Positions 23,898-25,016 of a DNA stretch of 64,000 nucleotides are shown piece by piece. Below the pieces are notes generated by a model. It ran no database searches. It was not told where the DNA came from and saw nothing but the letters and a program-made list of their open reading frames with translations. Source of the stretch: Escherichia coli (GTDB lineage Bacteria; Pseudomonadota; Gammaproteobacteria; Enterobacterales; Enterobacteriaceae). Position numbers and translations under genes: made by a program. The first letter of the stretch is position 1. Every line of letters starts with the position of its first letter. The stretch lies in assembly GCF_041886205.1 (NCBI RefSeq), contig NZ_CP169029.1; one strand, written 5' to 3'.

Positions 23898-25016
23898 TGG
23901 CCAATAAAACTGAAAAGCCAACACAAAGAAACTCCAGGATGCTTCTAAAAAAGGGCAAATTCTAAAAAGTAGAGACTTAACCATCTCTGTAATAATGCTT
24001 GTGGGTACTTTATATCTCGGATATGTTTTTGATGTGCATCACATTATGTCGATTCTTGAATACATCCTTGATCATAACGCTAAACCAGATATTTGGGACT
24101 ATTTTAAAGCTATGGGGGTTGGTTGGTTGAAAACGATCATTCCTTTTTTGCTGGTTTGCATGTTCACAACAATACTTGTCTCCTGGTTTCAAAGTAAAAT
24201 GCAATTAGCAACTGAAGCTGTTAAATTTAAGTTTGATTCATTGAATCCAGTAAATGGCTTAAAGCGTATATTTGGCTTAAAAACCGTAAAAGAATTTGTT
24301 AAAGCAATTCTTTATATTATTTTTTTTGCATTGGCGAACAAAGTATTTTGGAGTAATCATAAATCACTGCTTTTTAAAACTCTTGATGGAGATATCATAT
24401 CTTTATTATCAGATTGGGGAGAGATGCTATTCCTTCTTATACTGTATTGTCTCGGCAGTATGATAATTGTCTTAATTTTTGATTTTATCGCTGAATATTT
24501 TTTATTTATGAAAGATATGAAAATGGATAAACAAGAAGTTAAAAGAGAACACAAGGAGCAAGAAGGAAATCCAGAAATTAAGTCTAAACGCAGAGAGCGC
24601 ATCAGGAAATTCTTTCTGAGCAATTGAAGTCTGATGTCAGTAATAGTCGTTTGATGATTGCCAACCCTACTCACATTGCAATAGGGATATACTTTAAGCC
24701 ACATCTTTCACCTATTCCATTGATTTCTGTAAGAGAAACTAATGAGGTAGCCTTAGCCGTAAGGAAATATGCAAAGGAAATCGGAATACCAATTATCACA
24801 GATAAAAAATTAGCACGAAAAATTTATGCTACCCATCGTCGCTACGATTATGTTAGCTTCGAAAATATAGATGAAATATTACGTCTTCTGCTGTGGCTTG
24901 AAGATGTAGAGAATGCTGGACAACCTGTTCCAGATGAACAGCTCTCTTCAGAAGATAAATTCATTGAAGGTGAAGAGAAAGAAATCGAGAATAAAGACGA
25001 TAATTTAAAAAATTAA
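23898..25016 (+). pseudogene. epaS: T3SS export switch protein (SpaS/EscU/FlhB family) with at least two frameshifts
   Basis: Starts MANKTEKPTQ then shifts frame (~23930); second shift near 24620; NPTH autocleavage motif present in the 3' segment. Confidence 0.7.

Follow-up and report, generated by a model that had tools for sequence, protein, structure and literature searches.

The window (the whole 64,000-nucleotide stretch of Escherichia coli DNA that was analysed, from contig NZ_CP169029.1) carries, in order, xdhA, actS, the tRNA-Gly(CCC) gene glyU (6032-6105), a 13.1-kb integrase-bearing element (6106-19235), the type III secretion system (T3SS) island ETT2 (about 19236-38000), yqeG, yqeF and kduI. 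The island is recognisable as ETT2 by its location beside glyU, the 13.1-kb element lying between the two, and by a yqe/yge-epr-epa gene order that is also that of O157 and ATCC 8739. The features at and immediately upstream of epaS, the sctU gene of the island, are as follows.

22184-23888, plus strand: epaP, epaQ and epaR (SctR, SctS and SctT), intact, directly 5' of epaS and in the same operon; full-length by tblastn, at 98.6-100%
23897-25016, plus strand: epaS (sctU) pseudogene, 1120 bp compared with 1122 bp when intact, delimited by alignment to intact alleles
23897-23965, plus strand: piece 1 of epaS, with the native start; 10 native and then 12 out-of-frame codons, stop TAA
23914-24627, plus strand: piece 2, open frame for native residues ~11-235, i.e. 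the TM domain and linker
24588-25016, plus strand: piece 3, open frame for native residues 236-373, i.e. the cytoplasmic autocleavage domain
24663-24674, plus strand: codons of the NPTH autocleavage motif, residues 257-260 of the repaired protein

The open reading frame listing resolves 23897-25016 into three successive plus-strand pieces, each in another frame. The first encodes a peptide of 22 residues, i.e. MANKTEKPTQ followed by out-of-frame RNSRMLLKKGKF and a stop. The earliest ATG of piece 2 is at 23995 (native Met34), giving an ORF of 23995-24627; piece 3 could start only at TTG 24624, which shares bases with the TGA that ends piece 2 (TTGA), giving an ORF of 24624-25016. These downstream frames stay open for 210 and 130 codons, respectively. 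The Pfam family PF01312 (Bac_export_2, the FlhB/HrpN/YscU/SpaS family; curated cutoff 24.4 bits) matches piece 2 over profile positions 10-239 (E 6e-56, 190.5 bits) and piece 3 over positions 244-334 (E 1e-20, 74.5 bits); because the matches are colinear, the two pieces are consecutive parts of one SctU/SpaS-type gene. An initial annotation, according to which the MANKTEKPTQ N terminus runs into a stop after 22 codons and the body of a frameshifted epaS resumes in another frame, is borne out by the ORF listing, the PF01312 matches and alignment, save that the gene starts at 23897, one base before the start that had been given (23898).

Two single-base deletions and their frequencies

Comparison with intact ETT2 alleles, the check that had been proposed for the frameshifts, locates them precisely. 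The references were the intact 1122-bp alleles of O157:H7 (Z1833, WP_001284737.1) and EC488 (WP_022646073.1), alongside which several alleles labelled 'frameshifted' by the NCBI pipeline (PGAP) were aligned. At base level the window allele differs from the intact ones by exactly two 1-bp deletions, so the number earlier put at 'at least two' is, with respect to intact alleles, two.

23925-23927, plus strand: deletion 1, A4 to A3 at codon 10/11; the frame stops after 22 codons
24600, plus strand: deletion 2, CC to C at codon 235/236; the shifted frame stops at TGA 24625-24627

At the first site, ACACAAAAG in the intact alleles is ACACAAAG in the window, one A being missing, and at the second, GAGCGCCATCAG is GAGCGCATCAG, one C being missing. 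A second shift had been placed near 24620, before NPTH; the shift is real, but what appears at that position is the stop to which it leads, the deletion itself being 63 nt 5' of the NPTH codons.

With the missing A and the missing C added back, an ORF of 373 aa results, which scores 569 bits against NCBIfam NF006017 (cutoff 394) and 384.5 bits against TIGR01404, SctU (cutoff 358). Residues 1-341 of the repaired protein align without gaps to SpaS (PDB 8axk, chain K; E 5e-107), NPTH being aligned to NPTH. The profile score, the NPTH motif and, as judged by alignment, a membrane domain colinear with that of a solved SctU all identify epaS with the SctU family, but the window allele does not have the one uninterrupted ORF of its members; owing to its two 1-bp deletions and the stop that follows 22 codons, it is classed as a SctU-family pseudogene, not as a functional member.

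By megablast, epaS is present in 3125 of 5426 complete E. coli genomes, and is chromosomal every time. Allele states at the two sites were counted using junction queries of 48-52 nt, in which each 28-mer megablast seed is forced across the indel and each of which, in a local check, matched its own allele only. The counts among the 5426 genomes are:

Site 1, A3 (deleted): 240 genomes
Site 1, A4 (intact): 2866 genomes
Site 2, single C (deleted): 2023 genomes
Site 2, CC (intact): 577 genomes
Site 2, CC in the divergent P666-like allele class: 359 more genomes

The P666-like class needed a site-2 query of its own, because SNPs in its flanks block the seeds; the earlier sum for this site had been 2600 of about 3100. 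With site-2 counts that cover all but about 5% (about 90-170) of the epaS-bearing genomes, the CC-to-C frameshift is present in around two thirds of these (at least 2023 of about 3125), and an intact epaS is possible in at most 936 (577 + 359), i.e. about 30%. The single C also occurs in five of five sampled A3 alleles (those of the window, 6EVA, ET245, ATCC 8739 and NCTC11023), a nesting which suggests that A3 arose later, inside the CC-to-C lineage. PGAP calls epaS 'frameshifted' in 6EVA, ET245, S1-NGR-02-A, O104:H21, ATCC 8739 and NCTC11023. A third epaS lesion, a T8-to-T9 insertion at the run matching window 24321-24328, is found in ET245 and S1-NGR-02-A.

Ten alleles were compared in the intact frame. 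Those bearing CC to C (n = 7) have 6 synonymous and 16 nonsynonymous variable sites (omega ~0.68), compared with 45 and 13 in the intact alleles (n = 3; omega ~0.07), a difference with a Fisher p of 5.6e-5 for unpolarised sites. For this small sample, in which changes were not polarised on a tree, the counts show that selection is relaxed in the frameshift-bearing alleles.

Decay of the surrounding ETT2 island

With O157 ETT2 proteins and the intact EpaR and EprH of ATCC 8739 as queries, tblastn searches of the whole window detected no eivF, eivG (secretin SctC), eivE (gatekeeper), eivA (SctV), eivC (ATPase SctN) or eivI, nor the GhoT-like gene of O157 ETT2; of eivJ, a remnant of the final 39 aa only was found. 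The island is thus a deletion isoform, not the complete apparatus set, including the eiv operon, that is seen in EAEC 042. Window 19236-21129 aligns to 2725-4609, and window 21121-40000 to 13337-32237, of the O157 sequence (L009); the deletion joins the 3' flank of the GH15 (pkgA-like) gene to the 3' end of eivJ. This junction and two broken epa/epr genes other than epaS are:

21121-21129, plus strand: eivF-to-eivJ deletion junction, ~8.7 kb lost, with microhomology AATGA
21208-22191, plus strand: epaO (SctQ) pseudogene, in three frames by tblastn; 'frameshifted' also in 6EVA, ATCC 8739 and NCTC11023
26130-27310, plus strand: eprH (PrgH homologue), split in two frames compared with the intact 393-aa ATCC 8739 protein

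The genes broken in the window are epaO, epaS, eprH, orgA (internal stop), ygeJ, ygeF, ygeH and yqeK, and those intact are epaP, epaQ, epaR, etrA, eprI, eprJ, eprK, ygeK, ygeG, ygeI, yqeI, yqeJ and yqeH. The initial annotation had recognised both the split of eprH, which tblastn reproduces and which is common to the window and 6EVA, and the disruption of the orgA-like gene. The split that it reported in the orgB-like gene is present, but the O157 reference annotation likewise has two ORFs there, to which the window adds a private A8-to-A7 contraction. Its view of the regulators as intact is correct for ygeK (210 aa), yqeI (268 of 269 aa aligned) and etrA (166 aa), all of which are full length; the HilA-like ygeH, which it did not list, is however frameshifted here. 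Its overall judgement, that the T3SS is very unlikely to be functional, can be put more strongly, the eiv block being deleted and epaO, eprH and orgA broken.

Two further genes differ in state among the genomes compared. The internal stop of yqeK (35073-35498) is at 35382-35384; the gene is flagged alike in 6EVA and is intact in ATCC 8739 and NCTC11023. The SctJ gene eprK (27912-28646) is intact in the window, is disrupted by IS1 in ATCC 8739, and is frameshifted in 6EVA, where one base is deleted at the site that corresponds to window 28261.

Of the complete genomes, that of 6EVA is the nearest (99.9% over the island, 99.97% over 25.8 kb of flank). Decay affects different ETT2 genes in each of the close relatives. 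Compared with 6EVA, ATCC 8739, NCTC11023 and O157, where alignable, three 1-bp contractions are found in the window only.

29183-29189: A8 to A7 at the 3' end of orgA; A8 in 4/4 alignable comparators
29434-29440: A8 to A7 in the orgB-like region; A8 in 3/3 alignable comparators (O157 without an anchor)
32651-32656: T7 to T6, splitting the HilA-like regulator ygeH (minus strand; ORFs 31728-32633 and 32582-33103)

The ygeH of 6EVA, ATCC 8739, NCTC11023 and O157 has T7 and is an intact 1377-bp gene. Against these three indels in the island there are zero in the 25.8-kb flank, compared with 6EVA, but the island has 21 runs of at least seven bases and the flank 13. The private contractions, including the ygeH frameshift, could be either genuine decay or assembly/homopolymer sequencing errors.

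The ~13.1-kb integrative element (6106-19235), which separates glyU from ETT2, abuts the 3' end of glyU and is followed by a partial tRNA repeat at 19236; it includes:

7248-8387, minus strand: TIR_2+DUF3298 protein
16997-17914, minus strand: AbiTii-domain protein
17935-19152, minus strand: tyrosine integrase

It also carries a resolvase, a DEAD/DEAH helicase and an Endonuclease_7 protein, and its 12000-19235 part is mostly matched in just 2 of the 5426 complete E. coli genomes. The element resembles a satellite or an island with defence cargo.

Interpretation and relation to known systems

The epaS of this strain is almost certainly a dead SctU-family gene, with two inherited 1-bp deletions, in a decayed ETT2 from which no injectisome is buildable. 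The presumably older lesion, CC to C at 24600, severs the cytoplasmic autocleavage domain from the membrane domain; the presumably younger, A4 to A3 (23925-27), limited to a smaller lineage including ATCC 8739, NCTC11023 and 6EVA, ends translation after 22 codons. The native start would then yield just a 22-residue peptide, hence no functional SctU, and a protein product is presumably absent. The ~8.7-kb deletion took the secretin, SctV, the ATPase and the gatekeeper and, because these are lost, no injectisome can be built.

That the frameshifts are sequencing or assembly errors in a truly intact gene has next to no probability. The three private 1-bp contractions (A8 to A7 twice, T7 to T6) do mean that some indels of the window are possibly errors, but those are in long homopolymers, whereas A4 to A3 and CC to C are in very short runs that are not error-prone. 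Independent assemblies carry the identical deletions (240 complete genomes for the first, 2023 for the second; ATCC 8739 and NCTC11023 are among them), and there are zero indels compared with 6EVA over the 25.8-kb flank. Since both deletions are in very short runs and are identical in independently sequenced genomes, sequencing error is excluded; they are real inherited alleles that predate the present strain. Equally hard to credit is a toggling of epaS by programmed ribosomal frameshifting or slipped-strand phase variation, even though both shifts are in one direction and the T8/T9 tract lesion of other strains is a plausible slippage site. On inspection of the sequence, neither site has a canonical slippery heptamer (X XXY YYZ), and phase variation would require much longer tracts than 3 A or 1 C. 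Lineage-sized sets of genomes (240 and 2023) carry the alleles in a fixed rather than a flickering state, and the partner genes for any 'on' state are deleted. The contrast in synonymous and nonsynonymous sites, i.e. relaxed selection in the frameshifted alleles, is what is predicted for a pseudogene, and counts against both programmed recoding and functional fragments.

The proposal that the split fragments do keep a function, e.g. through a C-terminal product of 130-138 aa coupled via TTG 24624 and TGA 24625-27, draws on the complete open SctU C-domain with NPTH in piece 3, on the overlap of the piece 3 start with the piece 2 stop, and on the phenotypes, flagellar effects among them, reported for degenerate ETT2 islands (PMC6030553, PMC3977695). 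Given the open downstream frames and the TTGA overlap, there may be residual translation of epaS fragments. A search for a Shine-Dalgarno sequence before ATG 23995 and TTG 24624 found none, however, coupling needs the translation of piece 2, which deletion 1 abolishes, the nonsynonymous excess reaches the C-domain (e.g. A256S beside NPTH), and the published ETT2 phenotypes are credited mainly to ETT2 regulators; retained function is accordingly judged very improbable. It is a similarly long shot that piece 3 (24588/24624-25016) is made and acts in trans on another export gate, e.g. flagellar FlhB/FlhA. In roughly two thirds of the E. coli that carry epaS, the frame of the complete autocleavage domain is still open, and, were the proposal true, the piece 3 product would contribute to the flagellar and cell-surface effects that have been reported for degenerate ETT2 islands.

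As a dead gene, epaS is a case already known both in kind and in instance, i.e. ordinary ETT2 attrition; it is known in instance because PGAP already labels this allele 'frameshifted' in related genomes. Beyond correct annotation the finding matters little, the new element being the per-site epaS allele counts across 5426 complete genomes. CC to C, at its frequency of two thirds, is a convenient lineage marker, and that frequency implies that the loss of EpaS is ancient and clonal, not recurrent. The ETT2 of this strain cannot assemble a secretion machine, and phenotypes of the island must therefore come from the surviving regulators etrA, ygeK, yqeI and yqeH, not from secretion.

According to reviews and genomic surveys, ETT2 is present in most non-B2 E. 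coli, with pseudogenes in O157 and in an intact form in EAEC 042 and ST69. Its attrition is widespread, the eivJICAEGF deletion being recurrent (PMC3977695, PMC11068852, PMC5422975, PMC7058095), and the same papers credit the mutational attrition of ETT2 to Ren et al. 2004. The EpaS of E. coli O157:H7 Sakai (ECs3721) and EAEC 042 is encoded at the orthologous locus, the window allele having 96.9% nucleotide identity to O157 Z1833; the O157 protein has the same place after epaP, epaQ and epaR and, at 373 aa, the length of the repaired window protein. By contrast with the intact O157 and EC488 alleles, that of the window, with its two 1-bp deletions, cannot encode the protein. The SpaS of Salmonella and Shigella (Spa40; PDB 8axk chain K, 3c01, 2vt1) has the N-terminal MANKTEKPT, the TM region and NPTH in common with the repaired epaS, but works in an active injectisome, whereas the window epaS is a pseudogene in an island without secretin, SctV or ATPase.

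A further parallel is with the published ETT2 attrition isoforms (PMC3977695, PMC11068852, PMC5422975), which, like the window island, are adjacent to glyU, have eivJICAEGF deleted between short repeats, and contain multiple pseudogenes in a pattern that tracks phylogeny. The eiv junction with its AATGA microhomology agrees with the deletion between small direct repeats that is described in the literature (PMC5422975). Thus, the window ETT2 does not differ in kind from these isoforms; what the window strain adds to them are the three private homopolymer contractions and the 13-kb element between glyU and the island.
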